Of a DNA stretch of 64,000 nucleotides, positions 24,281 through 40,375 are shown piece after piece. Below the pieces are notes generated by a model, which was not told the DNA's origin, ran no database searches, and worked only from the letters and a program-made list of their open reading frames with translations. Within the stretch, counting starts at the first letter, position 1. Each line of letters begins with the position of its first letter. The stretch spans positions 898,560 through 962,559 of the forward strand of contig CAVUKA010000001.1 in assembly GCA_963741945.1 (NCBI GenBank). The letters run 5' to 3'. The stretch is from an uncultured Gemmatimonadales bacterium (GTDB taxonomy: Bacteria > Gemmatimonadota > Gemmatimonadetes > Longimicrobiales > RSA9). Position numbers and translations under genes: made by a program.

Positions 24281-25152
24281 GTCCCGGCAAGGAGTTGCGG
24301 AACCGACTGGAGGGGCGCGCGACGCTCCCCTTCATAGGCGTCTACGACGTCTTCTCGGCGTCGCTCGCCGGGCGCCATTTCGATGCCCTCTTCCTCAGCG
24401 GATTCGGCTTCGCCGCCAGCCACTACGGGCTACCGGACGTGGGGTTCGTGGCATGGCCTGACATGGTTTCACTGGTCCAGCGGATCCGCGCGATCCTGCC
24501 CCGGCACCACCTTCTGGTGGACATCGACGACGGCTACGGGGATCCCGTGGTGGCCGCACGCGTCGCTGCGACCCTCGAACAGGCGGGCGCGTCCGGTGTG
24601 GTCCTGGAAGACCAGCGCCGCCCCCGCCGGTGCGGTCATCTCGGCGGCAAGCAGCTCCTCGAGCTGGATGAGTACCGGCCCAAGCTGGAGCGGGTGCTGC
24701 AGGCCCGCTCCGACCTCTTCATCGTGGCCAGGACCGATGCGAGTGACCCACCGGAAGCGCTTCGGCGGGTGCGGGCATTCGCCGAAGCCGGCGCGGATGC
24801 GGTCCTGGTGGATGGGGTGGACCTCGACGTGGTCCGGACTCTCCGCGGAAAGGTGGACCGTCCTTGGGCATTCAATCAGATCGCCGGGGGCAAAGCCGAG
24901 CCGCGATCGCTTCAGGAGCTGAGTTCGGCAGGAATACAAATGGCCATCTACAGCACGCCTTGCCTGTTCGCCGCGCAGCACGCCATCGACCAGGCGTTGA
25001 CACAGCTCATGGCCGATGGCGGACGTCTCCCCGAAGTCGGCCCCGGCCGCCCCGGATTGGCTGACTGCAACGCCGTCCTCCAGGAAAACCTTGGCGGCGT
25101 GATGCACCCGGAAGCCGCGACGACTGCGGATTCCGGTCTACGGCCCCGCTGA
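24277..25152 (+). CDS. isocitrate lyase / PEP mutase superfamily enzyme, lyase-type active-site loop
   Basis: DIDDGYG and LEDQRRPRRCGHLGGK (the K/R-x-CGH gating loop of ICL, methylisocitrate lyase and oxaloacetate acetylhydrolase-type members). ATGA overlap with the upstream gene at 24277-24280. Confidence 0.85.
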   Translation: MSPGKELRNRLEGRATLPFIGVYDVFSASLAGRHFDALFLSGFGFAASHYGLPDVGFVAWPDMVSLVQRIRAILPRHHLLVDIDDGYGDPVVAARVAATLEQAGASGVVLEDQRRPRRCGHLGGKQLLELDEYRPKLERVLQARSDLFIVARTDASDPPEALRRVRAFAEAGADAVLVDGVDLDVVRTLRGKVDRPWAFNQIAGGKAEPRSLQELSSAGIQMAIYSTPCLFAAQHAIDQALTQLMADGGRLPEVGPGRPGLADCNAVLQENLGGVMHPEAATTADSGLRPR

Positions 25153-28100
25153 TGCCCATGGCCACTCCTCCGCCGGAAAGCCTGTCCCACCTTTCACCCG
25201 CGGCCCGCGATCTACTCGCCCGCCGTTCCCGCGCGGACGAATCGTCCTCAGCGGGCAGCGAGCCACTCAGGCATCGGCCGGGGGCCACCGAAGCTCCGCT
25301 CTCCTTCGGACAACAGCAGGTCTGGTTCTTTGAGCAGCTCGAGCCAGGCAGCGCGGTCTATCACCTGCCGAAGGAAGTGCGACTGCGCGGCCCTCTGGAC
25401 GTCCCGGCGCTCGAGCGGGCGCTCGGCGAGGTTGTCCGCCGACACGAGATCTTGCGCACGCGCTACGGCACGCTGGCCGATGGCGCGATCCGCCAGCTCG
25501 TCCTCCCGGCGGCCGGACGAGTGGAATTGCCGTGCGTCGATGTGACCGCGTCGGCAACGCAAACGGACGAGCCGTCGGACGGCACCCTGGCGCAACCCGA
25601 AGCGCTGGCCAGGGGCGAAGGCTCGCCGTGGCGGCGACAGGTCGGCCTCGATGCGCTGCGGCCCTTCGATCTTGCGGCCGGAGAAGTCTTGCGGGCAAAG
25701 CTGTATCGCTTCGGGTCCGAGGACCACCTGCTTCACCTGGTCTTCCACCACATTGCGTTCGACGGCTGGTCGATGGGAGTGTTCCTGCGCGATCTCGCCA
25801 GCGCCTACGGGGGCGCGCTGCGAGGGGATGCGACGTTGCCGCCTCTCCCGATCCAGTACGGCGACCATGCAGCCTGGGAAGTGAGTCGGCTGGAATCGGG
25901 CAGGTTCGATGACGTCATCGACTACTGGCGACGGCGCCTTCGCGGCGCTCCGCCGGAGTCGACCTTCCCTGCATCCCGTCCGCGGCAGGTGGACCGGACG
26001 TATGCGGCGGCACAGGAGCATCGCCGGCTCCCAGACCACCTGAAGAGCGCTCTCCATGACATGGCCCGTCGACAGAACGCCACCGAGTCCGCCGTGCTCC
26101 TGGCCGCGTTCCAGGTCCTCCTGGCCCGCCACTCCGGGGCGCGGGACGTCGTCGTGGGCGTGCCCGTCGCCGGCCGCACCCGCAGTGAGCAGGAGGACCT
26201 CGTAGGCTATTTCGTCAACATGTTGCCCGCTCGGTTGGACCTTGCCGACGACCCTTCGTTTCGTCAGGTGGTCGACCGGGTCCGGACCGGGCTCCTCGAG
26301 GGCTTCGACCATCAGACCGTGCCGTTCGACCGCATAATCTCCGACCTGCGCGTACATCGCGATGCCGGGATCACGCCGCTCTTCCAGGTGGCGTTCAACG
26401 ACCGGATTCTCCCGAACCAGGGAGCAGAGTTCGAAGGCCTGGACGTGGAGATGCGCGCTGGCTTCCACGCCCGGCACCTGCTTGATCTCAGCCTGGAGGT
26501 CGGGCACGTGGCCGGGACAATCGAGTGCGATCTGACGTACAGCCTGGAGCTGTTCGATCCGGGGTACGCCCGTACCCTCCTCCCTCAGCTCGAAACGGTT
26601 CTCCAGGCAATGATCGCCGACCCTGACGCCGCCATTACAGCGGCTCCCCTTCTTCGGCCGGCGGAGCGCTCACGCATCATCGAAGCGGGCCGGGGTCCCC
26701 GACGTCCAGTTCCTCCTTCGACCCTGATCCACGAGCTGGTGCAGGAGCAGGCCGCTCGGGACCCGGAAGCCAGCGCCATCATCGGTGACGAGGAAACGCT
26801 CACGTACGGAGAGATGAGGCGGCGGGCTGCAAGCCTCGCTGCGCGCCTGCGTAACGCGGGAATCGCCCCGGAGACGCGCGTCGGGGTCTTCGTCGACCGG
26901 TCTCCCGGACAGATCGTCGCCCTCCTCGGGGTCCTCGAGGCGGGCGGCGCCTACGTCCCCCTCGACCCATCCTATCCGCGGGAACGCCTGGCCTTCATTG
27001 CCCATGACTCGGGGATGGAGGCGATCGTCACGACGCGGCGGCTTCGCTCGCGCGTCCCCCTCGATTCGATCCCCGCCCTCTGTCTGGATGACCCGTCCAC
27101 GCCCGACGGCTCCGACGCGGCACCTGCCAGCGTCATCAGGAACGTGCCGTCGGACCCGCTGGCGTACATGATATACACATCCGGCTCCACGGGGACGCCG
27201 AAGGGAGTGGAAGTTACGCACGCCTCGGTGGCGAACCTCGCTGCGGCGGAGCGTGACCTGCTCCGCGTCGCGCCGGCCGATCGCGTGCTGCAGTTCTCGA
27301 CAATCAATTTCGACGTGTCCGTGGCCGAGATCTTCACATCCCTCACGGCCGGTGCGGCCGTGGTGGTGTGCACTCCCTCGATGCTCACATCCGTCCCGCA
27401 GTTCGTGCGCGCGTGCGAGGCGAAGGGTGTGACGCTGCTCTCCATGAGCACCGCCCTCTGGCACGAACTCGTGGTGTCTCTGGCCGAAGGCGATGTCGAG
27501 ATGCCGCCCGCCGTGAGAACCGTGATGATCGGGGGTGAAGCCGCGCGCCCGGACCGCCTTGAACTGTGGCGACGCCACGGCTCGGGCATACCCCTCATCA
27601 ACGGCTATGGACCTACCGAGACCACGGTCTTCGCAACTGCCCAGGACCTGACTCACCCGGTGGCCGGGGAGGACGCCGTTGTTCCGATCGGGCGCCCGCT
27701 GCACAACGTGGATGTACACGTCCTTGACGAGCGGATGGCTGTAGTGCCGGCCGGCGTTCCCGGAGAGCTGTACATCGGTGGCCTGTGCGTCGGCCGGGGT
27801 TACCATGATCGCCCGGAGTTGACCGCGGAGCGGTTCCTTCCGGATCCGTTCTCCGCACGACCGGGGGGACGCCTGTACAGGACGGGAGACATCGTGCGGC
27901 GACGCGAGGATGGCGCCCTGGACTTTCTCGGCCGTCGAGACAACCAGGTCAAGATCCGCGGGTTCCGCATTGAGGCCGGTGAGATCGAGGTGGCAATGGC
28001 TGCGCATCCCTCCGTGCGCACCGCCGTTGTCGTGCCGCGGCCCGATGGCGTGGGTGATCTCCGGCTCGTGGCCTACGTGGTGCCGGCCAGTGGCGTGTTC

Positions 28101-31100
28101 GACCGGCGCGTTCTCGCTGACCACCTCCGACGGTCGCTTCCCGAGTACATGATTCCGACGGCCTTCGTGCGACTCACGGAGCTCCCCCTCCTGCCCAATG
28201 GCAAGGTCGACCGGAAGGCACTTCCGGAACCTGATCCGGTTGGGGAAGCCGCGTTCGAGCCACCCCGGGGCCCCCGCGAGAGCGCGCTGTGCGAGATCTG
28301 GGAGAACGTGCTCGGTGTGCAGCCGATCGGACGGAACGTGGACTTTTTCGATGTCGGCGGCCACTCGCTGTCTGCCATGCTGGTCGTCGGCCGCGCGGAG
28401 GCGGCGCTCGGGATGGAGGTGCCGCTCCGGGCGATCTTTGAGCACCGCACCGTAGCGCGCCTGGCGGCCTTCCTGGAACGTGCAGAACGGGAACGGGGAG
28501 CTCTGTTCCCGCCGATCGAGACCGGGACCGATGTACCCGCCCCGCTCTCCTTTGCGCAGCGACGTCTGTGGTTTCTCGATCGGCTGGCACCGGGAAGACC
28601 AACGTACAACATCCCACTCGCGTTCCAGCTCCGCGGCCACCTTGATCCCTCAGCACTGCGCAGCGCCTTGCGACGGATCGTGGAGCGGCACGAGCCGCTG
28701 CGCTCATGGATCCGCGAGGGCGTCAGCGGACCCGTCCAGGTCGTCGCGCCTGCCGACCTGTTCGAGCTCGCCGTCGAAGAGGTCCCGGGGGGTCCTGAAG
28801 ACTCCCAACCCCGGGTGCTGCGCCGCCTGGAGGAGGAGGCGCACCGTGCGTTTCAGCTCTCGGACGAAATCCCGTTTCGCGCTCATCTCTTCCGGCTGGG
28901 CGCGCGCGAGCACGTGCTCTTCCTCTGCCTTCATCACACCGCTGCGGACGGCTGGTCCGTCGACATCCTCTTCGCGGAGCTTGAAGCGCTCTACGGCGCC
29001 GCCCTCGCCCGTGCGGAGCCGGACCTGCGGGCGCTCCCGGTCTCCTATTCCGACTACGCGAAATGGCAGCATCGGCACGAGGGTCTCCTGCAACCGGGCC
29101 TCGAGCGTTGGGTGAAGCGACTTCAGGGTGCGCGTGCGCTGGAGCTGCCCGTCGACCGCCCGCACACAGGAGTGCAGAGCGGCGCGGGCGGGGAGAGTCG
29201 AGCGCGGCTGGACGGCCACGTTCTGGAAGAACTGCGCGATCTCGCGCGAAGTGAGCAGACCACTCTCCACGTGGCACTATTGACTGCGTTCCACGTCATG
29301 CTTTCCCGGCTCAGCGGCCAGGATGACATCGTAGTCGGCACGCCCGTGGCGGGCCGCGTTCGGCCGGAGCTCGAGCCGCTCGTCGGCATGTTCGCCAACA
29401 CGGTCCCCATTCGCGTGGACCTCTCCGGCGAGCCGTCGTTCCTCGAAGCCTTGCGCCGTGTCCGCGCCGTGACCCTGGCGGTCTACGGTGATGAGGCAGT
29501 GCCGCTCGAAGCCATGGTGGAGGCCAGTGGGGTCGAGCGCGACGGCAGCGCCAATCCTCTGATCCAGGTGGCATTCGCGCTGGCAGCGGACGGTCGACGA
29601 GCGCCCCGGCTGCACGGTCTCGAGGTGGAGGACCTGGAGCTGCAGACGGCTACCGCGAAGTTCGACCTGTACCTCGCGGCCAATCCCAATGCCGATGGTC
29701 TTGCGCTGCGTCTCGAGTACGATGCGGACCTCTTCCAGGGCCGCACCGCCGCGCACCTCCTCGAGCTCTTCAAAACGCTGGTGTCCGCGGCTGTCGCGGA
29801 TCCCGAACGCCCCTTGGCGGATATCGACCTCTCCGACGACGAGGAGCGCCAATGGGCCGTCGACTGGAACCGGACCGAGCGGCCGTTCCCCGGCGACACG
29901 GTGCACGAGCTGTTCACCACGGTGGCCGCACGTACACCCGACGCTGTGGCCGTGGAGGACCCACACGAGCGACTTACATACGCAGACCTGGATGGCCGAA
30001 GCGCAGCGCTGGCCGGGCAGCTGGTGTCGCTGGGGGTGGAGGCGGGCGAGCGGGTCGGCGTGTTCATGGAACCGGGCGCGCCGCTGGTGGTTTCCATGCT
30101 GGGCATTCTTCGGGCGGGCGCCTGCTACGTTCCGCTCGACCCCGCACTCCCTGGCCAGAGACTGGCGCTCCTGATCGAGGACGCGGGCATCCGGCACGTA
30201 GTGGCGTCCGGCCGGGTTCCCCCCGGCCTCCGGGCGACGGGCGTCGAGATCGTGGAGGCCCGCGACGGTCGCGACCAGCGCCTCCGCGACGTGGCCCGGC
30301 CCGCTTCTGTCGCCGCAACCGCGAATGACCTCGCCTACGTCCTCTACACCTCCGGCAGCACGGGCCGGCCCAAGGGCGTGGCCGTACCGCATCGGGCAAT
30401 CGTCCGATTGGTTCGGAACTCCGACTATGTCGACCTCCGGACCGATGACGTGGTGGCGCAGGTCTCCACCCCCAGCTTCGATGCCGCCACATTCGAGATC
30501 TGGGGAGCGCTGCTGAACGGCGCCCGGCTGACCATCCCGGACAGCCGCCTGCTCTCGCCCCGGGAGCTCGAGGGGTTCCTTCGCGACCGAGGAGTGACAA
30601 CGCTGTTTCTGACCACGGCGCTCTTCAACCAGGTGAGCCGGGAGCGCCCCGCTGCATTCGGATCTCTGCGCCAGCTCCTCTTCGGTGGGGAGACCGCCGA
30701 CGCGGAGGCCGCCCGGCGCGTCCTGGATGGCGGCGCCCCGCCGAAGCGCCTGCTGCACGTCTACGGGCCTACCGAAAACACGACATTTTCAACTTGGTAC
30801 GCCGTCCAGCACGTACCGCCCGGTGCCGCCACACTGCCGATCGGGCGCCCGATCGCCAATTCCACCGCGTGGGTCATGGACGCGCGAGGAAAGCTGCAGC
30901 CACGGGGACTCTGGGGCGACCTGTACGTGGGCGGCGTGGGCGTGGCCGCCGGCTATCTCGGGGCGGCCGCGGCTGAGGCCGACCGTTTCGTTCCGGACCC
31001 GTTCGCAAATGCGCCCGACCGCCGGCTTTACCGGACCGGAGACCGCGCGCGCTGGAACCTGGATGGCGAACTCGAGTTTGGCGGTCGACTCGACACCCAG

Positions 31101-32579
31101 GTGAAGCTCCGCGGGTTCCGCATCGAGCTGGCCGAGGTCGAGGCCGCCCTTCGCCGCTCCGCGGGTGTGCGGGATGCCGTCGTCGCGCTCCGGGGCGAGG
31201 GGGCAGGGCGCCACCTCGTCGCCTATGTCGTGACCGGTGAGGACGCCGTGGACCGCTCGACGCTGCAGGACCAGCTCCGCGAGCAGATTCCGGCCTACAT
31301 GGTTCCGACGGCCGTGGTCGCCCTCGATGCGCTCCCCCTCACGCCCAGCGGGAAAGTCGATCGGCAGGCGCTCCCGGAGCCGGACCCGGTCAGGGTCGGC
31401 GGAGCTCGTCCACCTGGAGATCCTCTCGAGCGCCAGATCGCCGCCATATGGGCGTCTCTCCTCGGTGTCGAGGCCGTGAGCGCTCGGGACAGCTTCTTCG
31501 ACCTGGGGGGGAATTCGCTCCTCGCCCTGGAGATGGTTCGCCGCGTGGAGAGTACCACTGGCCGGCGCCTCGAGCTTCGGGCGCTATTCGAGGAGCCCAC
31601 TGTGGCTCATCTCGCCCGCGTGGTCGCCCGCGAGGCGACCTCCACCACCTCCTCCGTCGTCCAGGTGCGAGAAGGGGATCCTGGCGTCCCCCCCTTCATC
31701 TTCTTTCATGGTGACTTCAACGGTGCGGGGCTTTACACTCGCAGATTGTTGGCCGAGATCGATGAGAGTCAGCCGGTCTATATCGTCCACCCACACCAAC
31801 CGGGCGGGCCGGAGACGATCGAAGCCATGGCCCAGGACCTCTACCCCGCCGTGCGCCGTGTACGCCAACATGGCCCCTTCCGCCTGGGCGGCCACTGCAA
31901 CGGGGGCGTCGTGGCGTTCGAAATGGCCCAGCGACTCGTCGCGGCAGGCGAGACCGTGGACCTGCTGGTCCTGGTGGACGTGCCAGGTCGCAACATCGGC
32001 CTGGCGCGCTACGCCGCCTTCCTCGACCAGGTCGGTCATGCGGCCCGCCTCACCTCCGAACGCCGCCGCGCCCTCTTCCGGGCGACGCGTGGATCGGCTC
32101 AGCGGCTGGTGCATGGCTGGATGAGCGCGGGAGAAGGGGGAGGTTCGTATCTCGCCGCCCCGCGGCGAACTGTCTTTCTCAGCTCCTGGCTGGTCGGTGA
32201 AGCCCGCCGTGTCGCGACCCGTCTCTTCCACGCGGTCCGCCGATGGACGGGCGGCGCAGACGCGTCCCGGCCTCGCCACCCGTACGTGGAGCGACTCGAA
32301 CGAGCAGCCTACTTCGGTTTGGCCATGGAAGCCTACGTCCCCAAGCGCTTTGCTGGCCCGGTCGTCATCGTTGCGCCCGAGCAGGAGAGTACGGACTCCG
32401 TGTCCGTTTCCGCACCGGCTCGGCTCTGGGCCCGGGTTGCCGATCACGCCGAGGTGTTCCGGATCGACGGCGATCACCTGAGTGTGATCGCGGAGGACAG
32501 TCAGCCCTTCGGTCGTCTTCTCGCCCGTCTGCTGCGCCAGGCAGGGCGCCCGCTCCGGGGCGCCAACCCTCGTGAGTGA
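25152..32579 (+). CDS. non-ribosomal peptide synthetase, two modules: C-A-T-C-A-T-TE
   Basis: C1 HHIAFDGWS (nt 25746). A1 LAYMIYTSGSTGTPKGV. T1 GGHSLSA (Ser 28365-28367). C2 HHTAADGWS (28932). A2 LAYVLYTSGSTGRPKGV. T2 GGNSLLA (Ser 31515-31517). TE elbow GGHCNGG (Cys 31896-31898) with GDHLSV. No E domain motifs seen. TGATG overlap with the upstream gene. Confidence 0.95.
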   Translation: MPMATPPPESLSHLSPAARDLLARRSRADESSSAGSEPLRHRPGATEAPLSFGQQQVWFFEQLEPGSAVYHLPKEVRLRGPLDVPALERALGEVVRRHEILRTRYGTLADGAIRQLVLPAAGRVELPCVDVTASATQTDEPSDGTLAQPEALARGEGSPWRRQVGLDALRPFDLAAGEVLRAKLYRFGSEDHLLHLVFHHIAFDGWSMGVFLRDLASAYGGALRGDATLPPLPIQYGDHAAWEVSRLESGRFDDVIDYWRRRLRGAPPESTFPASRPRQVDRTYAAAQEHRRLPDHLKSALHDMARRQNATESAVLLAAFQVLLARHSGARDVVVGVPVAGRTRSEQEDLVGYFVNMLPARLDLADDPSFRQVVDRVRTGLLEGFDHQTVPFDRIISDLRVHRDAGITPLFQVAFNDRILPNQGAEFEGLDVEMRAGFHARHLLDLSLEVGHVAGTIECDLTYSLELFDPGYARTLLPQLETVLQAMIADPDAAITAAPLLRPAERSRIIEAGRGPRRPVPPSTLIHELVQEQAARDPEASAIIGDEETLTYGEMRRRAASLAARLRNAGIAPETRVGVFVDRSPGQIVALLGVLEAGGAYVPLDPSYPRERLAFIAHDSGMEAIVTTRRLRSRVPLDSIPALCLDDPSTPDGSDAAPASVIRNVPSDPLAYMIYTSGSTGTPKGVEVTHASVANLAAAERDLLRVAPADRVLQFSTINFDVSVAEIFTSLTAGAAVVVCTPSMLTSVPQFVRACEAKGVTLLSMSTALWHELVVSLAEGDVEMPPAVRTVMIGGEAARPDRLELWRRHGSGIPLINGYGPTETTVFATAQDLTHPVAGEDAVVPIGRPLHNVDVHVLDERMAVVPAGVPGELYIGGLCVGRGYHDRPELTAERFLPDPFSARPGGRLYRTGDIVRRREDGALDFLGRRDNQVKIRGFRIEAGEIEVAMAAHPSVRTAVVVPRPDGVGDLRLVAYVVPASGVFDRRVLADHLRRSLPEYMIPTAFVRLTELPLLPNGKVDRKALPEPDPVGEAAFEPPRGPRESALCEIWENVLGVQPIGRNVDFFDVGGHSLSAMLVVGRAEAALGMEVPLRAIFEHRTVARLAAFLERAERERGALFPPIETGTDVPAPLSFAQRRLWFLDRLAPGRPTYNIPLAFQLRGHLDPSALRSALRRIVERHEPLRSWIREGVSGPVQVVAPADLFELAVEEVPGGPEDSQPRVLRRLEEEAHRAFQLSDEIPFRAHLFRLGAREHVLFLCLHHTAADGWSVDILFAELEALYGAALARAEPDLRALPVSYSDYAKWQHRHEGLLQPGLERWVKRLQGARALELPVDRPHTGVQSGAGGESRARLDGHVLEELRDLARSEQTTLHVALLTAFHVMLSRLSGQDDIVVGTPVAGRVRPELEPLVGMFANTVPIRVDLSGEPSFLEALRRVRAVTLAVYGDEAVPLEAMVEASGVERDGSANPLIQVAFALAADGRRAPRLHGLEVEDLELQTATAKFDLYLAANPNADGLALRLEYDADLFQGRTAAHLLELFKTLVSAAVADPERPLADIDLSDDEERQWAVDWNRTERPFPGDTVHELFTTVAARTPDAVAVEDPHERLTYADLDGRSAALAGQLVSLGVEAGERVGVFMEPGAPLVVSMLGILRAGACYVPLDPALPGQRLALLIEDAGIRHVVASGRVPPGLRATGVEIVEARDGRDQRLRDVARPASVAATANDLAYVLYTSGSTGRPKGVAVPHRAIVRLVRNSDYVDLRTDDVVAQVSTPSFDAATFEIWGALLNGARLTIPDSRLLSPRELEGFLRDRGVTTLFLTTALFNQVSRERPAAFGSLRQLLFGGETADAEAARRVLDGGAPPKRLLHVYGPTENTTFSTWYAVQHVPPGAATLPIGRPIANSTAWVMDARGKLQPRGLWGDLYVGGVGVAAGYLGAAAAEADRFVPDPFANAPDRRLYRTGDRARWNLDGELEFGGRLDTQVKLRGFRIELAEVEAALRRSAGVRDAVVALRGEGAGRHLVAYVVTGEDAVDRSTLQDQLREQIPAYMVPTAVVALDALPLTPSGKVDRQALPEPDPVRVGGARPPGDPLERQIAAIWASLLGVEAVSARDSFFDLGGNSLLALEMVRRVESTTGRRLELRALFEEPTVAHLARVVAREATSTTSSVVQVREGDPGVPPFIFFHGDFNGAGLYTRRLLAEIDESQPVYIVHPHQPGGPETIEAMAQDLYPAVRRVRQHGPFRLGGHCNGGVVAFEMAQRLVAAGETVDLLVLVDVPGRNIGLARYAAFLDQVGHAARLTSERRRALFRATRGSAQRLVHGWMSAGEGGGSYLAAPRRTVFLSSWLVGEARRVATRLFHAVRRWTGGADASRPRHPYVERLERAAYFGLAMEAYVPKRFAGPVVIVAPEQESTDSVSVSAPARLWARVADHAEVFRIDGDHLSVIAEDSQPFGRLLARLLRQAGRPLRGANPRE

Positions 32580-33321
32580 GATCGCGCGTTCTGGTGAGCC
32601 GCCCCCGCTACAACCCGACGAGGTTCATGTCTGGCGCGCTGTTCTCGGGCTCGATCCAGCGGTCGAGCCAATGCTGGACCGTTTCCTTTCACATGCCGAG
32701 CACAGGCGCGCGACGCTGTTCCACCGGACAGCCGATGCCCGGCTCTTCCGCTTCGCGCATGGTTTCCTGCGACTGATTCTCGCCCGCTACACCGGCACCC
32801 TCGATCCAGGCGCGATCTCGCTGGCGAACGATGCTCGGGGAAAGCCGCGGCTTGCCCGCGCCAGCGGCTGCCGTCCTGTCGAATTCAATCTCTCGCATTC
32901 CGGGGATGCGGTCCTTGTCGCTTTGACCCGAACTCGGCACGTCGGTGTCGACGTCGAGACCCTGGATCGCGCGCCCGATGCCGAGGCCATCGCCCGTCGC
33001 TTCTTCGCTGCGCCGGAGCTGGCCCGCATTCTCGCCAGCCCGCCGGCGCAGCGTGCCGGGTTATTCCTGCGACACTGGGTCATGAAGGAAGCGTTCGTGA
33101 AAGGGTTGGGGCTCGGTCTCGGCGCCATCGACCTCAAGGCGTTCGCCATGGACCCCGACGCCACGAATGGACGCATCCATCCGCTCACGCGCGAGATGCA
33201 CCGGCACTCGAAGACCTGGGCAGTGGCCGAGGTCGCGGCCCCTGAGGGCCACGTCGCCGCCGTTGCCGTCAACACCCCCGTGCTCCGCTGGAAGGGCTTC
33301 GCCTGGCAAGGCCCGATCTGA
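32572..33321 (+). CDS. Sfp-type 4'-phosphopantetheinyl transferase
   Basis: FNLSHSGDAVLVAL, VGVDVE and WVMKEAFVKGLG motifs. GTG start overlaps the NRPS stop (32572-32579). Confidence 0.85.
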   Translation: MSEIARSGEPPPLQPDEVHVWRAVLGLDPAVEPMLDRFLSHAEHRRATLFHRTADARLFRFAHGFLRLILARYTGTLDPGAISLANDARGKPRLARASGCRPVEFNLSHSGDAVLVALTRTRHVGVDVETLDRAPDAEAIARRFFAAPELARILASPPAQRAGLFLRHWVMKEAFVKGLGLGLGAIDLKAFAMDPDATNGRIHPLTREMHRHSKTWAVAEVAAPEGHVAAVAVNTPVLRWKGFAWQGPI

Positions 33322-33358: not shown

Positions 33359-33408
33359 CCTTCGTGTCACGCTGTTCGGGGAGCTGTTCCTTCGTGTCAC
33401 GCTGTTCG
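33359..33408. repeat. perfect 20-bp direct repeat with exact 30-bp period, upstream of the haem-motif sensor kinase gene
   Basis: CCTTCGTGTCACGCTGTTCG at 33359-33378 and again at 33389-33408. Additional CTTCG and GCTGTTC submotifs lie nearby. Confidence 0.85.
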
Positions 33409-33556: not shown

Positions 33557-35191
33557 GTGAGTTTCAAGAATCTGGGCACGCGGATCGCCCTGACCGCGGG
33601 TTTTTTCACGCTCGTCAGCGTGGGGCTCCTTTCGTTCATCCTGGTCCAGCGTCAGCGGGAGCAGGTGCGGGCGGAGGTCGTGCATGGCTCGGAGAGCCTG
33701 GCGGACGCCATCGCGCTGAGTGTGCACCGGGACATGCAGCTGAACCACCGCGGGGGCGTCCGCGAGATGCTCGAGACGGTAGGCCAGCACGAAGGCATCG
33801 CCGGCATTCGCCTGTACAACCGTGAAGGCCGCATCTCCTACTCTTCCGACCCGGCCGAAGTCGGGCGGGTGGTGCCCCGGAGCTCCGAAGCCTGCGTGAC
33901 GTGCCATGCCAACGGGCAGGCGACGGCAACCGTGGAGCCGGACCGCCGCTGGCGCATCTTCACGGGGCAGGATGGGGAGCGCCTGCTCGGGACGATCCAC
34001 GTGATCCGCAACGAGCCCGGGTGTCAGGGAGCCGGGTGCCACGCGTCGCCGGCACAGCAGAGCGTGCTCGGAGTCCTGGATGTGGCCATGTCCATGGCGC
34101 CCGTGGAGCGCCGCCTGGCCTCCGACACCCGCGACGCGCTCCTGATCTCCCTCCTCGCCGTCGCGGTGATCACGCTCCTCCTCGTGCTCCTGGTGCGCCG
34201 GAGCGTGCGTCGCCCGATCCAGCGGATGGTGAGCGCCACGCGGCGGATGGTGGAGGAGACGGGGTCGCTCCCCGTGCCCCGCGGGACGGCACCGGAGATC
34301 GCGATCCTGGCCGAGTCCTTCAACGAGATGATCGAGAGCCTGGCGAGCTCGAAGCAGCGCCTCGAGGACTGGGCGGAAACGCTCGAGGAGCGCGTCTCCT
34401 CGAAAGCGCAGGAGCTCCGGGAAGCCCAGTTCGAGGTGCTCCAGGCGGAGAAGCTCTCCTCCGTCGGCCTGGTAGCGGCCGGGATCGCCCACGAGCTGAA
34501 CAGCCCGCTCATGGCCATCATCACCTTCTCGCACCTGGTCAAGTCGGCCGTGCCCGATGACGAGGGCGCGCAGGAGGACCTCCGCATGATCGAGCGGGAG
34601 GCGAACCGCTGCGCGGCCATCATCCGGCAGCTCCTCGACTACTCGCGTAAGCAGGCGGAAGACCCGGAGACCCACCCCCAATCCGTGGCCCCGGTGCTCG
34701 AGCGGGCGCTCGAGCTGGTGAAGGTGGAGCTTCAGAATGGCGGCTTCCGGGTGACGACCGAGCTGTCGCCCGACCTCCCCTCCGTCGAGGTGAACGATCA
34801 GCAGCTCATGCAGGTGTTCGTCAACCTCATCATGAACGCGCTCCACGCCATGGGCGACGACGGTGGCGAGATCCTGTTCCGGGGCGACACCGTGCGGCGC
34901 GACGATTTCCCGAACGTGGACTGGCCGCTCCACGGTGGCACCGAAGCCGTCCGCATTCGCGTCCGGGACACCGGGCCCGGGATCGCGCGGGAGAAGTTCT
35001 CGAAGATCTTCGATCCGTTCTACACGACCAAGCCGGTGGGCCAGGGCTCCGGCCTCGGACTCGCCGTATCCCTCGGGATCGTACGCGGCTATCGGGGTAC
35101 GATCATGGTGGACAGCGATGGCGAGTCGTGGACGGAGTTCACGATCCTCTTGCCGACGGCGGAGAACCCTGCAATGGCCTTGACCTCATGA
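33557..35191 (+). CDS. sensor histidine kinase with extracytoplasmic domain carrying c-type haem-binding motifs
   Basis: GTG start with GGAGG upstream. TM1 (FFTLVSVGLLSFILV), sensor region with CVTCH (33893-33907) and CQGAGCH (34022-34042), then TM2 (LLISLLAVAVITLLLVLLV). HAMP-like linker, H-box AHELNSPLMAI, NLIMNALHAM, VRDTGPGI, GSGLGL. Confidence 0.85.
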   Translation: MSFKNLGTRIALTAGFFTLVSVGLLSFILVQRQREQVRAEVVHGSESLADAIALSVHRDMQLNHRGGVREMLETVGQHEGIAGIRLYNREGRISYSSDPAEVGRVVPRSSEACVTCHANGQATATVEPDRRWRIFTGQDGERLLGTIHVIRNEPGCQGAGCHASPAQQSVLGVLDVAMSMAPVERRLASDTRDALLISLLAVAVITLLLVLLVRRSVRRPIQRMVSATRRMVEETGSLPVPRGTAPEIAILAESFNEMIESLASSKQRLEDWAETLEERVSSKAQELREAQFEVLQAEKLSSVGLVAAGIAHELNSPLMAIITFSHLVKSAVPDDEGAQEDLRMIEREANRCAAIIRQLLDYSRKQAEDPETHPQSVAPVLERALELVKVELQNGGFRVTTELSPDLPSVEVNDQQLMQVFVNLIMNALHAMGDDGGEILFRGDTVRRDDFPNVDWPLHGGTEAVRIRVRDTGPGIAREKFSKIFDPFYTTKPVGQGSGLGLAVSLGIVRGYRGTIMVDSDGESWTEFTILLPTAENPAMALTS

Positions 35192-36651
35192 CCGACGAAG
35201 TGAGCTGGACCGAGCCCCCGCACGTGCTCGCCGTGGATGACGAGCAGGTGGTCTGCGAAAGCATCCGCCGCGTCCTCACCGGCGAAGGCTATGTGGTCAA
35301 GACCACCACCTCCCCGCGCGAGGGCCTCGACATGATCCGCAAGGAGACGTTCGACCTCCTGCTCCTCGACATCAAGATGCCCGAGATGGACGGGATCGAG
35401 CTCCTGCGCCGCGTCAAGGACCTGTCTCCAGAGACCGAAGCCATCGTCATTACCGGCTACGGCACCATCGAGACGGCCATCGAGGCCACCAAGCTCGGCG
35501 CCTTCGACTACCTCGAGAAGCCCGTCAGCCCCCCGGCTCTCATCGTCACCACGGCCCGCGCACTCGAGCGCAAGCACCTCGTCGATCTCACCCGGCGTCT
35601 CCGCTCCGAGCTCGACACCCGCTATTCCGTGGGCAACGTGATCTGCTCCTCCCCCGCCATGCGCAAGGTCATGGACCTCGTGGCCAAGGTCGCTCCCACC
35701 AACAGCACCGTGCTCATCACGGGAGAGACCGGCACCGGGAAGGAAGTCATCGCGCGCGCGCTCCATTACAACAGCCGTCGCAACGACGGGCCGTTCATCG
35801 TTGCCGACTGCGCCTCGCTCAGCGAGTCCCTCCTCGAGTCCGAGCTCTTCGGCCACGTCCGCGGCGCCTTCACGGGTGCCGCCAGGGACCGGAAGGGCCT
35901 CGCCGAGGCCGCGCGCGGCGGAACGCTCTTCCTCGACGAGATCAGCACCATCTCCCCCAAGGTGCAGGGCAGCCTCCTCCGCCTCATTCAGGAGCACGAG
36001 ATCCGACCCGTCGGCGCGGACAGGACCATCTCCGTCGACGTCCGCGTCATCGCCGCCACCAACCGCGACCTCCAGGAGCTCGTCGATGACGGCTCCTTTC
36101 GCGACGACCTCTTCTACCGCCTGAGCGTCTTCGCCATCCGCCTCCCGCCCCTGCGCGAGCGCAAGGAAGAGATTCCGCTCCTCGCCCACCACTTCGTCCA
36201 GCGCATCGGCGAAGAGGTCGGCAAGCAGATCGACGCCATCTCGCCCCAGGCCATGGCCCTCCTCGAAGCCCACGACTGGCCCGGCAACGTCCGCGAGCTC
36301 GAAAACGTCATCGAGCGCGCCGTCCTGCTCTCCGAAGGACGCACCATCCAGCCCCAGGCCGTTCCCCTCGCCGCCGAACACTCCGCGGCCCGCTGGGACG
36401 ACGTGCCCGACGACGCCGCCACCCTCGCAGAACGGAAGAAGGAGATCCGCGCCCAGGCCGTCGAGGACCTCGAGAAGCTGTTCGTCCTCAAGGCCCTCCG
36501 CGGCGCCGACTGGAACGTCTCCGAAGCCGCCCGCCGCGCCGGCATGCAGCGCCCCAACCTGCACGCCCTCATGCGCAAGTACGACATCACCACCCCGTCC
36601 GGCGACACCGGGGAAGAAGACACGGAGCAAGAGGGCGCCGGGGCATCCTGA
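35188..36651 (+). CDS. sigma-54-dependent response regulator (NtrC family)
   Basis: Start ATG 35188 (MTDEVSW), ATGA overlap with the kinase stop. REC (VLAVDDE, LLLLDIKMPEMDG), GETGTGKE, ESELFGHVRGAFTGA, HTH (AARRAGMQRPNLHALMRKY). Confidence 0.9.
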   Translation: MTDEVSWTEPPHVLAVDDEQVVCESIRRVLTGEGYVVKTTTSPREGLDMIRKETFDLLLLDIKMPEMDGIELLRRVKDLSPETEAIVITGYGTIETAIEATKLGAFDYLEKPVSPPALIVTTARALERKHLVDLTRRLRSELDTRYSVGNVICSSPAMRKVMDLVAKVAPTNSTVLITGETGTGKEVIARALHYNSRRNDGPFIVADCASLSESLLESELFGHVRGAFTGAARDRKGLAEAARGGTLFLDEISTISPKVQGSLLRLIQEHEIRPVGADRTISVDVRVIAATNRDLQELVDDGSFRDDLFYRLSVFAIRLPPLRERKEEIPLLAHHFVQRIGEEVGKQIDAISPQAMALLEAHDWPGNVRELENVIERAVLLSEGRTIQPQAVPLAAEHSAARWDDVPDDAATLAERKKEIRAQAVEDLEKLFVLKALRGADWNVSEAARRAGMQRPNLHALMRKYDITTPSGDTGEEDTEQEGAGAS

Positions 36652-36722
36652 CGCCTCTTCTCCACCCCCTCTTCGGACGGGGCGCCATGGCTCCATGGCG
36701 TCCTCCGATCCACCCCTCCTGA

Positions 36723-36747
36723 GGGTGTATATCCTTCGCATACACCC
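36723..36747. promoter_or_regulatory. upstream activator site candidate 1 (GTGTAT-N9-ATACAC palindrome)
   Basis: GGGTGTAT-ATCCTTCGC-ATACACCC, with perfect 8-bp inverted arms. Confidence 0.55.
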
Positions 36748-36838
36748 ATCGTGACCCCACCAAGAAGCACCCTAAGTCAATAGGCCACAACGCATTATGG
36801 ATACCCTGTCCCGATTCTCTCCCCTCCCCCGGCCGTGA

Positions 36839-36861
36839 GGTGTATACGGTCTGTATACACT
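36839..36861. promoter_or_regulatory. upstream activator site candidate 2 (GTGTAT-N9-ATACAC palindrome)
   Basis: GTGTAT (36840-36845), 9-nt spacer, ATACAC (36855-36860). Same core and spacing as site 1; centres are 115 bp apart. Confidence 0.55.
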
Positions 36862-36954
36862 CTCGCCCCTTCCAGGCCCCTCACCGCCCGATCGCACTAC
36901 CCGCTAACGCTTTGTGCACCAACGTGTTATGGAAATCGTGATAAAATTCCCATT

Positions 36955-36972
36955 TGCGGCACGACCGTTGCC
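36955..36972 (+). promoter_or_regulatory. sigma-54 (-24/-12) promoter
   Basis: tgcGGCACGaccgTTGCc: GG at 36958-36959 and GC at 36970-36971 (12-nt offset) fits TGGCACG-N4-TTGC. It lies about 45 nt upstream of ATG 37014 and downstream of the two palindromes and an AT-rich stretch (36921-36950). Confidence 0.7.
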
Positions 36973-37013
36973 CTCTACAAGGCCGAACGGGATCGGGTCC
37001 GGAGTGGACGGAG

Positions 37014-37442
37014 ATGGGCTGCCCGAGGAAGGAGGGGCCGGAAGTGGGAGCACGGGAACAAGGATCCACGGTCTTGCTGTCGGATGCTGGCGGCTACGGC
37101 GCGCTGGCGGGCCGGCTGTCGGGCTCCGGGCACGCGGTGGTGTGGTACTCGAGCCTGGAGGAGCTGCTCCGGGAGCATCCATTGTCGACGATTGCGGTGC
37201 TGGTGGTGCACGGCAAGGCGGCGCCGAAAGGGGTGCTGCTGGCCACGCTGGGTCGGATGAACCTGGAGTACCCGCGCATGCAGAAGGTGGCGGTGATGGA
37301 AGGTCCGCTGCCGCTGCCGATCGCCGAGTACCTGACCGCGTGCGGAGTGGAGCTGGTGTGGTCGGAGTCGCGGGAGGAAGCGTTGACGCGGCTGACGACG
37401 GTTCTGGAGCGTGTTCACGAGCGTGCGGGCTGGCTCGCCTGA
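37014..37442 (+). CDS. receiver-like (pseudo-receiver) domain protein lacking the phospho-acceptor Asp
   Basis: 142 aa from ATG 37014 (GGAG SD). Alternating beta/alpha pattern with G/C-rich third positions. STVLLSDAG replaces the DD pocket and IAVLVVHGK has His where the acceptor Asp is expected. No conserved Thr/Lys. TTG 36954 is rejected because it lies upstream of the sigma-54 promoter. Confidence 0.6.
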   Translation: MGCPRKEGPEVGAREQGSTVLLSDAGGYGALAGRLSGSGHAVVWYSSLEELLREHPLSTIAVLVVHGKAAPKGVLLATLGRMNLEYPRMQKVAVMEGPLPLPIAEYLTACGVELVWSESREEALTRLTTVLERVHERAGWLA

Positions 37443-37477
37443 GGCGGCGGTCCGCGCTTGAACGAAGGAGGAGCGAG

Positions 37478-38095
37478 ATGAGAAGGAACGGCAAGGTCCT
37501 GGTGGTGGACGACGAGGAAGCCGTCCGCACGAGCTGGAACCGCTACCTGTCGGAGCGCGACTTCGACGTGACGACGGCGGAAGACGGGAAGGTGGCCATG
37601 GACTGGCTCGCGCGTGAGCCGGTGGATGTGGTGGTTGCCGACCTGAAGATGCCGACTGTGAGCGGGATCGAGCTGCTGGAGTGGATGAAGGGTGAGGCGC
37701 CGGACACCCCGTTCATCCTGTTGACGGGTTTCGGGAACGATGACGTGAAGCGTCGGGTGCGGGAGCTCGGCGGGTTCGAGTACCTGGACAAGCCGGTGAG
37801 TCCGGAGGTACTGGCGGCCGTCGTCACGGCGGCCATGTTGAAGAAGGAGCAGGAGGAGTCGGCCGCGGCGGAGGCCGAGGCGGTGTCGCCGATGCGGGCG
37901 GAGCCGGAGCTGACGGAGTCGTCGGAAGCCGAGCGTGGTGCCATGGGCAGCACGGGCGAGGTCTTAACCGGCCTGGTGGTGGCGCCGATACTGGGTCTGG
38001 CGTTCGTGATGTTCCTGCCGGTGATCGGCTTCGCGGCGTTCTTCAAGGTCGCGGCGGAAGCAGTGAGCAAGCGGTTCAAGCCAGCGAACACGTGA
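37478..38095 (+). CDS. single-domain response regulator receiver with C-terminal transmembrane anchor
   Basis: ATG 37478 after GAAGGAGGAG. Canonical REC (VLVVDDEE, VVVADLKMP, ILLTGFG, EYLDKP), an acidic linker, then the hydrophobic helix VLTGLVVAPILGLAFVMFLPVIGFAAFF. Confidence 0.8.
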   Translation: MRRNGKVLVVDDEEAVRTSWNRYLSERDFDVTTAEDGKVAMDWLAREPVDVVVADLKMPTVSGIELLEWMKGEAPDTPFILLTGFGNDDVKRRVRELGGFEYLDKPVSPEVLAAVVTAAMLKKEQEESAAAEAEAVSPMRAEPELTESSEAERGAMGSTGEVLTGLVVAPILGLAFVMFLPVIGFAAFFKVAAEAVSKRFKPANT

Positions 38096-38116
38096 GCCTG
38101 AGAAGCTGAGGAGAAG

Positions 38117-40375
38117 GTGATGAGCGGATCCATGCGAGGGGCGGCCGGGGGTGCGGTAGTGCTGCTCCTCATGCTCCTGGGGGAGGGGGTCGGCGCCGGC
38201 GCGGTCCGAGCGCAGACGCCTCAGCAGAAGTACGTGGAAGGCGCGTGTGCGTCGTGCCACGACAGCGACGCGGTGCTGCGGGCGCAGGCGCTCCCGCATG
38301 CGAGCTCGGTGTCGTGCCTCGACTGCCACCACATGGGGCTCCAGACCACGAGCCGGGCTGCGCTGAAGGCCCGGCAGCTGGACGCCTGCCGCAGCTGTCA
38401 TGAGACGGAAGCGGCCGAGACCGGGCACGGAGCGGGGGACGCGACGTGCCTGGACTGCCATGTGATCCATGGCGAGCCGCGGCTGGATTGGGCGAAGAAG
38501 AGTCTCTCCGCCCGGTGCGCGTCGTGCCACGATACTCCGCACAAGCTCCACACCGGCGTCGAGGCGGGAGCACCGCTGTGCGTGGACTGTCATGATGTCC
38601 ACCATACGCGGCAGCGGGCGGCGCAAGAGGAAGTGCGCACGGCAGCGGCGACCGGCGACGTTTCCGAGGTTTCCGCGGGGGAAACCCCGCCGATGATTTC
38701 GGCGTGTGTGTCGTGTCACGAGGACGTCCATCCGTCGCATCCCAAGAAGGGGCGGGACGCGGTCGACTGCGTGCAGTGCCACGACCCGGACGCGGCCGAG
38801 CCGGTGGCGCGCGACAGTGTCCGTCTGGCGGCGGCGTGTGCCAGCTGCCACGAGGACGCGCACCGGACACACCAGGGCGTTGGAGAGGGTGCGCCGCTGT
38901 GCATAGACTGTCACTCGTTCGCGAACGACCCTCCCATCACCGAGCTCCCGGTGGCCGTGATCGCGGACCGCTGCGCGGTGTGCCACCCGGACGCCATGCA
39001 GGAATACCTGAGGGGGGGCCACTCCGTGGGGCTGACGTCGCACGCTTCGCACAAGAGCGTCCCCACCTGCCTGACGTGCCACGTGGACATGCTGGAGGGG
39101 GAGACGAACCGCGCGCCGAACCGCATGGCGGCGGCGAGCACGTGCATCGGCTGCCACAGCAACAAGAAGCTGGCGGAGACGTACGGACTGTCCACGACCG
39201 TGGTGACGTCGTACGAGGACGACTATCACGGCACGACGCTCGGCTTCATGAAGGCAGCCGGGTCGGCCGACTCCGTGGCCGTGCTCACCTGCGAAGACTG
39301 CCACGGCGCACACGCGGTGGGCTGGAGCAAGGAGAAGGTGGTGAGCGAGGTGTGCGAGCGCTGCCACAAGAACGCCAGCCCGAAGCTGGCGGGCGCGTGG
39401 CTCGGCCATGAGCCTCCTGGCCCGCACAACCAGCTGCCCACGTGGCTGGTCAGCATGTTCTACTATTTCCTGATTCCCTTCATGCTGATCGGGCTCTCCC
39501 TGATCATCCTCTACGAGGCGCTCCATGGGCAGCGCCACCGGGCGTGGTCACGGAAGGTCCGCTCCATCTGGGCGCGCCTCACGGGGAAGCAGACCGAGCG
39601 GCCGCGGATGATCAGGCGCTTCACGGTGTGGGAGCAGCTGCAACACGCCCTGGGGTTGACCACCTTCATCACACTCGTGGTCACGGGGTTGCCGCAGCTC
39701 CGGCCCGACCTGGCCACGGCCGATGCCATCATCGGGTTCTTCGGCGGAATCGGAACTACGCGGCTGGTCCACCGGATCGCGGGGTTCTCCTTCGCGACCC
39801 TGCTGGTCGTGCACGTCGGGCTCGCCATCGTGAACGCGATCCGCAAGCGCCGGATGCCGATCATGCTTCCCACGCTCGAGGACTTCGACAAGGCCGTCGG
39901 CACGGTCCGTCACTTCATCGAGAGCACGCCCAGGCCGAAGGTCGGGAAGTTCGACTTCGCGCAGAAGTTCGAATATGGCGGCCTGCTCATGGGCGGCCTG
40001 GTCATGACGTTCACCGGGATCGCCCTGGTCTGGCCGGAAGTGGCCACGCGCCTGCTCCCGGGCGAGTGGATGGCGGCCATGCGCACCATGCACGGCTACG
40101 AGGCCACGTTCGCCACGCTCGTGGTGGTCCTCTGGCACTCGTGGGGAGTGATCTTCCGGCCGGAGATCTTCCCGCTCGACACGTCGATCTTCACCGGCAA
40201 GGTGAGCGTGGAGCGGCTGAGGGAGGAGCACTGGCTGGAGTACGCGCGCCTCTTCCCGGAGGAGGCGGCTAAGGAAGCCGCGCAGGAAGCCGCAGAGCGC
40301 GCGGCCGGTGAAACATCGGGTCGGGGGGGTGCAGGCAGTGAGAAGGCGGTGCCGGACGCGCCGCCGAACGCCTGA
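38117..40375 (+). CDS. multihaem cytochrome c (15 CXXCH) fused to FdnI/HydC-type cytochrome b membrane domain (CbcL-like), paralogue of 7298..9346
   Basis: Signal peptide and 15 CXXCH in about 430 aa, then TM helices with His conserved relative to the paralogue (RFTVWEQLQHAL..VTGLP, LVHRIAGFSF..VVHVGL, MHGYEATFATLVVVLWHSW). Start is GTG 38117 or ATG 38120. Confidence 0.9.
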   Translation: MMSGSMRGAAGGAVVLLLMLLGEGVGAGAVRAQTPQQKYVEGACASCHDSDAVLRAQALPHASSVSCLDCHHMGLQTTSRAALKARQLDACRSCHETEAAETGHGAGDATCLDCHVIHGEPRLDWAKKSLSARCASCHDTPHKLHTGVEAGAPLCVDCHDVHHTRQRAAQEEVRTAAATGDVSEVSAGETPPMISACVSCHEDVHPSHPKKGRDAVDCVQCHDPDAAEPVARDSVRLAAACASCHEDAHRTHQGVGEGAPLCIDCHSFANDPPITELPVAVIADRCAVCHPDAMQEYLRGGHSVGLTSHASHKSVPTCLTCHVDMLEGETNRAPNRMAAASTCIGCHSNKKLAETYGLSTTVVTSYEDDYHGTTLGFMKAAGSADSVAVLTCEDCHGAHAVGWSKEKVVSEVCERCHKNASPKLAGAWLGHEPPGPHNQLPTWLVSMFYYFLIPFMLIGLSLIILYEALHGQRHRAWSRKVRSIWARLTGKQTERPRMIRRFTVWEQLQHALGLTTFITLVVTGLPQLRPDLATADAIIGFFGGIGTTRLVHRIAGFSFATLLVVHVGLAIVNAIRKRRMPIMLPTLEDFDKAVGTVRHFIESTPRPKVGKFDFAQKFEYGGLLMGGLVMTFTGIALVWPEVATRLLPGEWMAAMRTMHGYEATFATLVVVLWHSWGVIFRPEIFPLDTSIFTGKVSVERLREEHWLEYARLFPEEAAKEAAQEAAERAAGETSGRGGAGSEKAVPDAPPNA

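Follow-up and report, generated by a model that had tools for sequence, protein, structure and literature searches.

A histidine kinase with a predicted two-haem periplasmic sensor, beside a sigma-54 regulator and a multihaem cytochrome operon in a Gemmatimonadales genome

In a 64,000-nt stretch of DNA from an uncultured Gemmatimonadales bacterium (GenBank assembly GCA_963741945.1, contig CAVUKA010000001.1, positions 898,560 to 962,559 of the forward strand; hereafter the window, numbered from its first nucleotide), we analyzed a sensor histidine kinase, K1, whose extracytoplasmic domain contains two motifs for covalent haem attachment. The K1 sensor probably carries two covalent c-type haems and controls the operon of a quinol-linked cytochrome through RR1, the sigma-54-dependent response regulator encoded next to it. 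K1 belongs to a known kind of protein, the periplasmic c-haem Cache/PAS sensors, whose two-haem form has been mentioned before only in passing, in 2006 and 2013, and most likely acts as a periplasmic redox (or NO/CO) sensor controlling that cytochrome. What is added here is a family-wide signature of the two-haem form, its breadth, and the conservation of its regulatory link to a multihaem quinol-linked cytochrome. A two-haem periplasmic sensor coupled to a sigma-54 activator and to a quinol-linked multihaem cytochrome offers a concrete candidate for the way in which bacteria respiring metals, electrodes or other extracellular acceptors sense redox potential outside the cytoplasm, and for the input to regulation of the BccR type. 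The window presents the elements as a compact, testable circuit (sensor, regulator, two candidate operator sites, promoter and target), and for comparison the genome also contains a sister module whose kinase is haem-less.

Two conserved haem c motifs in the periplasmic domain of K1

The start of K1 is supported by the alignment of its N-terminus with those of homologues and by an identical 544-aa public gene call; its domains and the other features discussed below are listed in Table 1. A preliminary description, made from the letters alone, had reported a CVTCH and a CQGAGCH motif between the two transmembrane (TM) helices of the kinase, and both are located exactly where it placed them. Hydropathy, together with the HAMP domain after TM2, assigns the two motifs to an extracytoplasmic loop. 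Since the HAMP domain and the ATP-dependent core must be cytoplasmic, this loop is periplasmic. Attachment of c-type haem occurs in the periplasm, and the concern raised in the preliminary description, that topology might put the motifs in the cytoplasm, was not borne out. The kinase core is of the NtrB/AtoS/ZraS-like type in an NCBIfam search. K1 has five Cys and 12 His in 544 residues, the sole Cys outside the motifs being C352, and a CXXCH is expected by chance about 0.001 times per protein, as computed from K1's own composition.

Chance origin of the motifs was ruled out by their conservation across the relatives. A word-index search with K1 residues 1-215 gave 13 relatives (32-63% identity) in which none of the four Cys or two His varies, and a profile search gave 418 matches, with a CX2CH followed 42-45 residues on by a CX4CH in 126 of the 126 sequences retrieved. 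An exhaustive hidden Markov model (HMM) search over 1.84 billion cluster representatives (50% identity clusters) returned 2914 matches at E <= 1e-3, including 463 at E <= 1e-30. Conservation was scored in K1 plus the best 150 HMM matches, taken as representatives at most 50% identical to each other. Among these 150, the CX2CH/CX4CH pair is present in 144; the second site reads CX3CH in two others, and the remaining four matched the first motif alone. Column by column, C113, C116 and H117 are conserved in 100% of the sequences and C156, C161 and H162 in 99%; the His after the second Cys is found in 151/151 sequences for the first motif and in 149/151 for the second, and residue 60 is Met in 150/151 (99%). 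As read from these alignments, the signature of the family is CX2CH, about 43 residues, CX4CH, plus Met60. CX4CH is a described haem c attachment motif (PMC11492766).

Position 164 is His in 90% of the K1 plus 150 set and in 253/272 family sequences (as CH-x-H-P). K1 has Ser here, and about 19 relatives, including those nearest to K1, have Ser, Pro or Asp, a change that may correspond to the loss of a distal haem ligand in the K1 subclade. Relatives with Ser, Pro or Asp at this position tend to carry a Gly before the second Cys (C-x-G-x-G-C-H). The idea that loss of His164 tracks a multihaem gene context was rejected, as the three loci with a multihaem cytochrome beside the kinase (L005, L022 and L039, see below) keep His164.

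Table 1. Features of the K1 and K2 modules, with positions in the window
Feature	Position	Strand	Description or basis
Kinase K1	33557..35191	+	544 aa: TM1, di-haem sensor (predicted), TM2, HAMP, HisKA, HATPase_c
TM1, about aa 9-31	33581..33649	+	Kyte-Doolittle hydropathy
Periplasmic sensor domain, about aa 32-189	33650..34123	+	Single-Cache/PAS-like; AlphaFold2 model, Foldseek, PF21563
Met60 codon	33734..33736	+	Candidate distal haem ligand; conservation, alignment with GSU0935
CVTCH, aa 113-117	33893..33907	+	Extra putative haem c site in the expanded beta2-beta3 loop; sequence, conservation
CQGAGCH, aa 156-162	34022..34042	+	CX4CH between beta4 and beta5, where the canonical haem site lies; alignment with 3b42
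Ser164 codon	34046..34048	+	About 90% of the family has His here
TM2, about aa 190-213	34124..34195	+	Hydropathy
HAMP, aa 212-262	34190..34342	+	Directly after TM2; PF00672, E 7e-8
HisKA (aa 305-367, His312 in AHELNSP) and HATPase_c (aa 415-535)	34469..35161	+	Pfam
Sigma-54-dependent response regulator RR1	35188..36651	+	REC, AAA+, HTH_8; Pfam
Palindrome 1 (GTGTAT-N-ATACAC)	36725..36747	+	Candidate activator binding site; kept in L081 and L082
Palindrome 2 (GTGTAT-N-ATACAC)	36840..36862	+	115 bp downstream of palindrome 1; kept in L081 and L082
Sigma-54 promoter-like site CGGCACGACCGTTGC (GG-N10-GC)	36957..36971	+	1-mismatch match, of which the window has three
Conserved small protein, about 133 aa	37044..37442	+	Alignment with L081 and L082 orthologues
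Receiver-only response regulator	37478..38095	+	C-terminal TM-like hydrophobic segment; PF00072, E 3e-27; orthologues in L081 and L082
15-CXXCH cytochrome c fused to cytochrome b561-type membrane domain	38117..40375	+	752 aa; likely target
Kinase K2	10674..12161	-	495 aa, single-Cache/CHASE8-like sensor; no Cys, no detectable HAMP
Sigma-54 regulator RR2, partner of K2	9343..10695	-	45% identical to RR1
11-haem cytochrome c::b-like fusion, partner of K2	7298..9346	-	27% identical to the 15-haem fusion, E 5e-53

Fold of the K1 sensor and its relation to known c-haem sensors

The K1 sensor is predicted to have a single-Cache/PAS-like fold. An AlphaFold2 model of residues 30-195 (pLDDT 85, pTM 0.81) has the element order alpha1-alpha2-beta1-beta2-loop-beta3-beta4-loop-beta5-alphaC. 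In the model, the beta2-beta3 loop has 35 residues, with a short helix at CVTCH (model residues 85-88), and the beta4-beta5 loop containing CQGAGCH has 18; confidence is lowest in these two motif loops, as expected of an apo model. Foldseek against the PDB retrieved the single-Cache sensors WalK, GSU0935, KinD, DctB and CitA, the top two, WalK and GSU0935, with E values of 4e-6 to 1e-5 (GSU0935 at rank 2, E 1e-5, 19% identity).

No Pfam or NCBIfam family matched the K1 sensor above threshold. Below it, sCache_3_2 covers the N-terminal half and PF21563 (Mcp40H-20_sensor) the C-terminal half. PF21563 was matched by 30/34 trimmed family sensors (E <= 0.01, best 4e-7) and by 32/77 full-length family proteins, so that the comparison with haem c PAS/Cache families proposed in the preliminary description links K1, at the family level, to the GSU0935/GSU0582 type of Geobacter sulfurreducens. 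A single-sequence search of the PDB with the K1 sensor found only a weak match to a cytochrome c551 motif; with the family profile, the best match among PDB sequences was GSU0935 (3b42), in two collinear stretches. In the profile alignment, 'NEQRCQSCH' of GSU0935 lies opposite 'NEPsCqgaeCH' of the family, setting CQSCH against CX4CH, and the Met60 column falls on the 'GYMMKG' ('YMM') segment. Because CX4CH aligns with the proven CXXCH site of GSU0935, CVTCH would add a second haem site, on a loop that is longer in K1, and it lies on about 17 residues without a counterpart in GSU0935. As far as computation reaches, the suggestion of a c-haem sensor is thus upheld by motifs that are periplasmic and near-invariant, the second aligning with a proven site, and in all likelihood the K1 sensor is the Geobacter-type c-haem sensor domain in a two-haem form. 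That the sensor is of a known kind, that it has two haem sites, and that the window holds paralogous modules of kinase, sigma-54 regulator and cytochrome c::b fusion (see below) had been missed in the preliminary description.

GSU0582 and GSU0935 (PDB 3B47 and 3B42) contain one c-type haem each, whose spin state is high in the oxidised and low in the reduced form, probably via binding of Met60; with midpoints of -156 and -251 mV, they have been proposed to be redox-potential sensors (PMC8396549). K1 resembles them in having a periplasmic domain that is flanked by two TM helices, with HAMP after the second, in the single-Cache/PAS-like fold, and in the haem c motif between the last two beta strands, which aligns residue for residue; the conserved Met in helix alpha1 may correspond to the switchable Met60 ligand. 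The differences are that these proteins are chemoreceptors whereas the output of K1 is a histidine kinase, that the canonical site is CX2CH there and CX4CH in K1, that the beta2-beta3 loop of K1 is longer by about 17 residues, which bear the second CXXCH, and that K1 is below the Pfam threshold with only about 19% identity.

A 2026 preprint regroups GSU0582 and GSU0935 with DUF3365/Tll0287 as 'sCache_heme', a Cache scaffold that gained a cytochrome-derived CXXCH fragment (Deshpande et al., PMC12889525). The K1 family likewise has a Cache scaffold with an inserted haem-motif fragment, many sCache_heme members are fused to HAMP/kinase outputs, and haem-less Cache relatives exist, mirroring the pair formed by K1 and the second kinase of the window, K2. 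In contrast, sCache_heme domains have one strictly conserved CXXCH each, and two-haem or CX4CH forms are not mentioned in the preprint (PMC12889525). Membership of the Tll0287/PF11845 (sCache_heme) family was rejected, given the missing PF11845 match and the two motifs per domain instead of a single CXXCH.

Closer in motif number are signalling proteins homologous to GSU0582/0935 with an extra haem motif, which we compare by description only. According to a passage in a review, GSU0591 and GSU0599 are among twelve G. sulfurreducens transducers with 'CX2-4CH' (Londer 2006, via PMC8396549), GSU0599 being a two-component protein with two haem motifs (PMC8396549). Adeh_2011 and Adeh_3383 are described as having 'an additional heme-binding motif' (PMC3831638). 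A literature search by locus tag found no paper characterising the haem domains of GSU0591, GSU0599, Adeh_2011 or Adeh_3383. DcrA of Desulfovibrio vulgaris, in which, as summarised in the same review, a periplasmic c-type haem senses redox potential or oxygen (via PMC8396549), would be similar to K1 in function and differs in being a chemoreceptor with a single haem.

A sigma-54 regulator and a multihaem cytochrome operon follow K1

The RR1 start codon overlaps the K1 stop codon as ATGA, an arrangement of translational coupling, and the two genes form a pair of the NtrB/NtrC type, a HisKA and HATPase_c kinase with a REC/sigma-54 AAA+/HTH regulator. Beyond RR1, a 360-bp spacer contains two palindromes and a sigma-54 promoter-like site. 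The GTGTAT-N-ATACAC palindrome occurs twice in the window versus 0.01 times expected. Two related loci, L081 and L082 (52-53% identity), encode RR1 orthologues of 486 aa and have a perfect TGGCACGNCCCTTGC at the position of the promoter-like site; all three elements recur there at the same positions (L081 13110-13353, L082 7808-8052).

Downstream of the spacer lie genes for a conserved small protein, without a Pfam match, a receiver with a membrane anchor-like segment, and the multihaem cytochrome c::b fusion, whose product matches Cytochrome_C7, Paired_CXXCH_1, c3_2 and Ni_hydr_CYTB in Pfam. The order kinase, sigma-54 regulator, 133-aa protein, receiver and multihaem c::b is shared by L081 and L082, the cytochrome c::b gene being present in L082 and as an intact 733-aa open reading frame (ORF) in L081. 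With gene order, palindromes and promoter conserved in both loci, the path from kinase to regulator, promoter and cytochrome operon is the best-supported functional inference from the window.

A sigma-54 promoter with candidate activator sites before an operon of b-type and multihaem c-type cytochrome is a layout like that of BccR and CbcBA. BccR (GSU0598) is a sigma-54 regulator required for induction of the bc-type cytochrome CbcBA as the potential falls, and the paper describing it names no sensor (10.1101/2021.04.15.440034). In both cases, a sigma-54-dependent, receiver-containing regulator lies beside an operon with a sigma-54 promoter, and hypothetical proteins and another response regulator are encoded in the operon along with inner-membrane cytochromes of the b type and the multihaem c type; CbcL, described as a bc-cytochrome (10.1101/2021.04.15.440034), is in this respect like the c::b fusion of the window. 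The likeness is one of layout, with differences: in the window, the b and c parts form one 752-aa, 15-haem polypeptide, the genes for kinase and regulator run in the same direction as the target operon, and the phylum is another, the nearest named relative here being Longimicrobiales. By its locus tag, GSU0599 is next to bccR, which by analogy may link this two-motif protein to BccR as K1 is linked to RR1.

About 150 bp upstream of K1, a direct repeat CCTTCGTGTCACGCTGTTCG is found at 33359-33378 and 33389-33408, 30 bp apart, and a TTGACA at about 33488. The repeat was not found upstream of the orthologues in L081 and L082.

The family recurs beside quinone-linked electron-transfer genes

A scan of species-representative genomes (one per species) confirmed at least 569 loci of the family, in lineages including Acidobacteriota, Zixibacteria, Ignavibacteria, KSB1, Deltaproteobacteria, Eisenbacteria and Gemmatimonadota-like genomes, and others. 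Among full-length members (K1 and 76 representatives), HAMP is present in 76/77 and both HisKA and HATPase in 72/77. Neighbourhoods were counted in the 80 loci that were kept. A sigma-54 regulator lies directly downstream of the kinase in 48/71 loci, and an NrfC-like 4Fe-4S protein and an NrfD-like membrane protein are encoded before the kinase in 47/65; a small cytochrome c precedes the kinase in 16/65, and an M54 peptidase follows the regulator in 36/66. What recurs is the placement of a sensor kinase next to periplasmic modules for quinone-linked electron transfer.

Among the loci L001-L080, the arrangement in most of those of Acidobacteriota type is a small class I cytochrome c, NrfC-like protein, NrfD-like protein, kinase, sigma-54 regulator and M54 (archaemetzincin-like) peptidase. 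A multihaem c::b fusion adjoins the kinase in only 3/80 loci (L005, L022 and L039) and was ruled out as a family-wide neighbour, the common ones being cytochrome c, the NrfC-like and NrfD-like proteins and the M54 peptidase. Since most members are not beside a multihaem c::b gene, the target likely differs between lineages.

K2, a distant haem-less relative in a paralogous module

The preliminary description had paired K1 with K2 as a natural contrast of haem-plus and haem-minus kinases, with one sensing redox or a small ligand through haem and the other something else. The start of K2 at 12161 is supported by homologue N-termini and an identical 495-aa public gene call. K2 does lack Cys-His motifs, having no Cys anywhere in the protein. 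Over their whole lengths, K1 and K2 are 26% identical (E 6e-27), with the similarity mostly in the kinase core, and identity is 22% (BLASTP E 1e-4) when only the sensors are compared. An alignment of the two sensor families with hhalign gave a probability of 49% (E 1.7e-4), with a 16-residue gap in K2 exactly at the CX4CH loop. The segments noted earlier as related, IRLYNREGRISYSSD in K1 and ARVYGTSGTVLVSTD in K2, align in BLASTP and form the beta1-beta2 hairpin in both models.

The comparison of predicted structures that had been proposed showed the same alpha1-alpha2-beta1-beta2-loop-beta3-beta4-beta5-alphaC fold in both sensors. The K2 model (pLDDT 88) has the same element order as K1 and also matches CitA and WalK in Foldseek, but the beta2-beta3 loop has 25 residues versus 35 in K1 and the beta4-beta5 turn 5 versus 18; K2 is thus without the two loop expansions that bear the motifs. 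K2 did not reach the threshold of CHASE8 (PF17152; 23.1 bits versus a cutoff of 27), and its homologue P0277 bears a precomputed PF17152 match. The proposed contrast therefore holds for the shared fold and the missing motif loops, but the two kinases are distant relatives and, since K2 has no detectable HAMP, they do not make a clean controlled comparison. That they are close paralogues was ruled out by the sensor identity and the hhalign probability, and by sequence they are old, distant relatives, not recent duplicates.

Both kinases are part of paralogous modules of kinase, sigma-54 response regulator and multihaem c::b fusion (7298..12161, minus strand; 33557..40375, plus strand). Of the two, only the plus-strand module includes a haem sensor, an additional small protein and a receiver with a membrane anchor. 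Near the K2 module, on the minus strand, are also a c3/c7-like multihaem protein (5913..~7300), a class I cytochrome c domain protein (13919..15106) and a NapC/NirT-like multihaem protein with TPR repeats (14407..16560).

Proposed mechanism and alternative explanations

Motifs, topology, fold and homology, and likewise the conservation, the gene order and the conserved regulatory sites, are shown by the analysis above; haem occupancy, the haem ligands, the signal and the direction of regulation we infer along the following lines. A first haem would occupy the canonical GSU0582/GSU0935 site, attached to CX4CH with His162 as the proximal and probably Met60 as the distal ligand, and a second would be attached to the added CXXCH (His117) in the enlarged beta2-beta3 loop. 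The axial ligation of a haem would change when periplasmic carriers or the ambient potential reduce or oxidise the haems, or when a diatomic ligand binds. The change in ligation would shift the N- and C-terminal helices, which are continuous with TM1 and TM2, and HAMP would pass this to the kinase core for phosphorylation of the translationally coupled RR1. RR1 would then bind the two palindromes and fire the sigma-54 promoter, driving expression of the small protein, the membrane-anchored receiver and the 15-haem c::b quinol-linked oxidoreductase.

Several observations weigh against this proposal or its parts. K1 itself scores only 18.7 bits for PF21563, with a gathering threshold of 27 and only the C-terminal half covered, PF11845 matched neither K1 nor any of 34 relatives, and the match of the family profile to 3b42 is weak (E 0.017). 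The K1 subclade is without His164, the only other conserved candidate for a distal ligand. One haem may thus be five-coordinate, which suits gas sensing as well as redox sensing; if His164 serves the added haem as its distal ligand, the site left open in K1 would be on that haem. For most family members, multihaem c::b genes are not adjacent to the kinase. The Geobacter parallel, drawn by analogy, rests on the adjacency of locus tags and on the motif count in the review.

The alternative that calls for most attention, although we consider it unlikely, is that what the K1 sensor detects is not redox potential but a diatomic gas (NO, CO or O2), with the axial ligand displaced or replaced at an open or weakly ligated haem. 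Signal-coupled sCache_heme domains do behave as NO-binding sensors (PMC12889525), GSU0582 and GSU0935 bind CO and NO through displacement of Met60 (PMC8396549), and the loss of His164 would leave one haem of the K1 subclade without an obvious sixth ligand. However, the regulated genes and the family neighbours point to quinone-linked electron transfer, not to NO detoxification or denitrification, two adjacent haems suit electron exchange better than a single gas site, and about 90% of the family retains both Met60 and His164, implying two six-coordinate haems. It is highly improbable that the four Cys and two His, instead of binding haem, coordinate Zn or an Fe-S cluster, or pair up in reversible disulfides, as a thiol-based periplasmic redox switch. 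CXXC and CX4C are formally compatible with a tetra-Cys metal site or two disulfides, and AlphaFold2 models the apo domain confidently, but the invariant His right after the second Cys of both motifs marks haem c sites and not those of Zn or Fe-S, the alignment sets the second motif against a haem site proven by crystallography, and Met60 is conserved together with the motifs. The host also encodes many c-type cytochromes and hence has the machinery for haem c maturation.

The frequent co-transcription of the domain with cytochrome c, NrfC or NrfD genes, the redox roles proposed for stand-alone sCache_heme proteins (PMC12889525) and the annotation of GSU0591, a two-motif protein, as a cytochrome c family protein (PMC8396549) would also fit a di-haem domain that is mainly an electron-transfer module, a small membrane-anchored cytochrome that works with the respiratory proteins encoded nearby and has kinase control as a secondary role. 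With HAMP and the full kinase core in nearly all members, the architecture is that of a signal transducer and a sigma-54 regulator is paired with it in most loci, making such a role very unlikely. Tentatively, a bolder version of the sensor proposal can be put forward, in which the family as a whole is a distinct, widespread di-haem sensor of redox potential. Its His/Met- and His/His-ligated haems, lying close together, would exchange electrons with periplasmic carriers or quinol-linked modules, the kinase activity would be set by the potential of the respiratory chain, and the family could be the missing input to BccR-type sigma-54 control of inner-membrane cytochromes; through loss of His164, which would open one haem to ligand binding, the K1 subclade would have become a combined redox and gas sensor.

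Other features of the window

Five large plus-strand ORFs (382-506 aa) between 40399 and 47631 have no Pfam match at E <= 0.001 and may be wrong frames shadowing minus-strand genes in GC-rich DNA. In the stretch directly upstream of K1 (24277..33321), a PEP mutase-family gene (24277..25152) is followed by an ORF of 2475 aa that resembles non-ribosomal peptide synthetases (25152..32579) and by a 4'-phosphopantetheinyl transferase gene (32572..33321). These genes are probably unrelated to the sensor, since relatives have TPR and Ku genes in this place.

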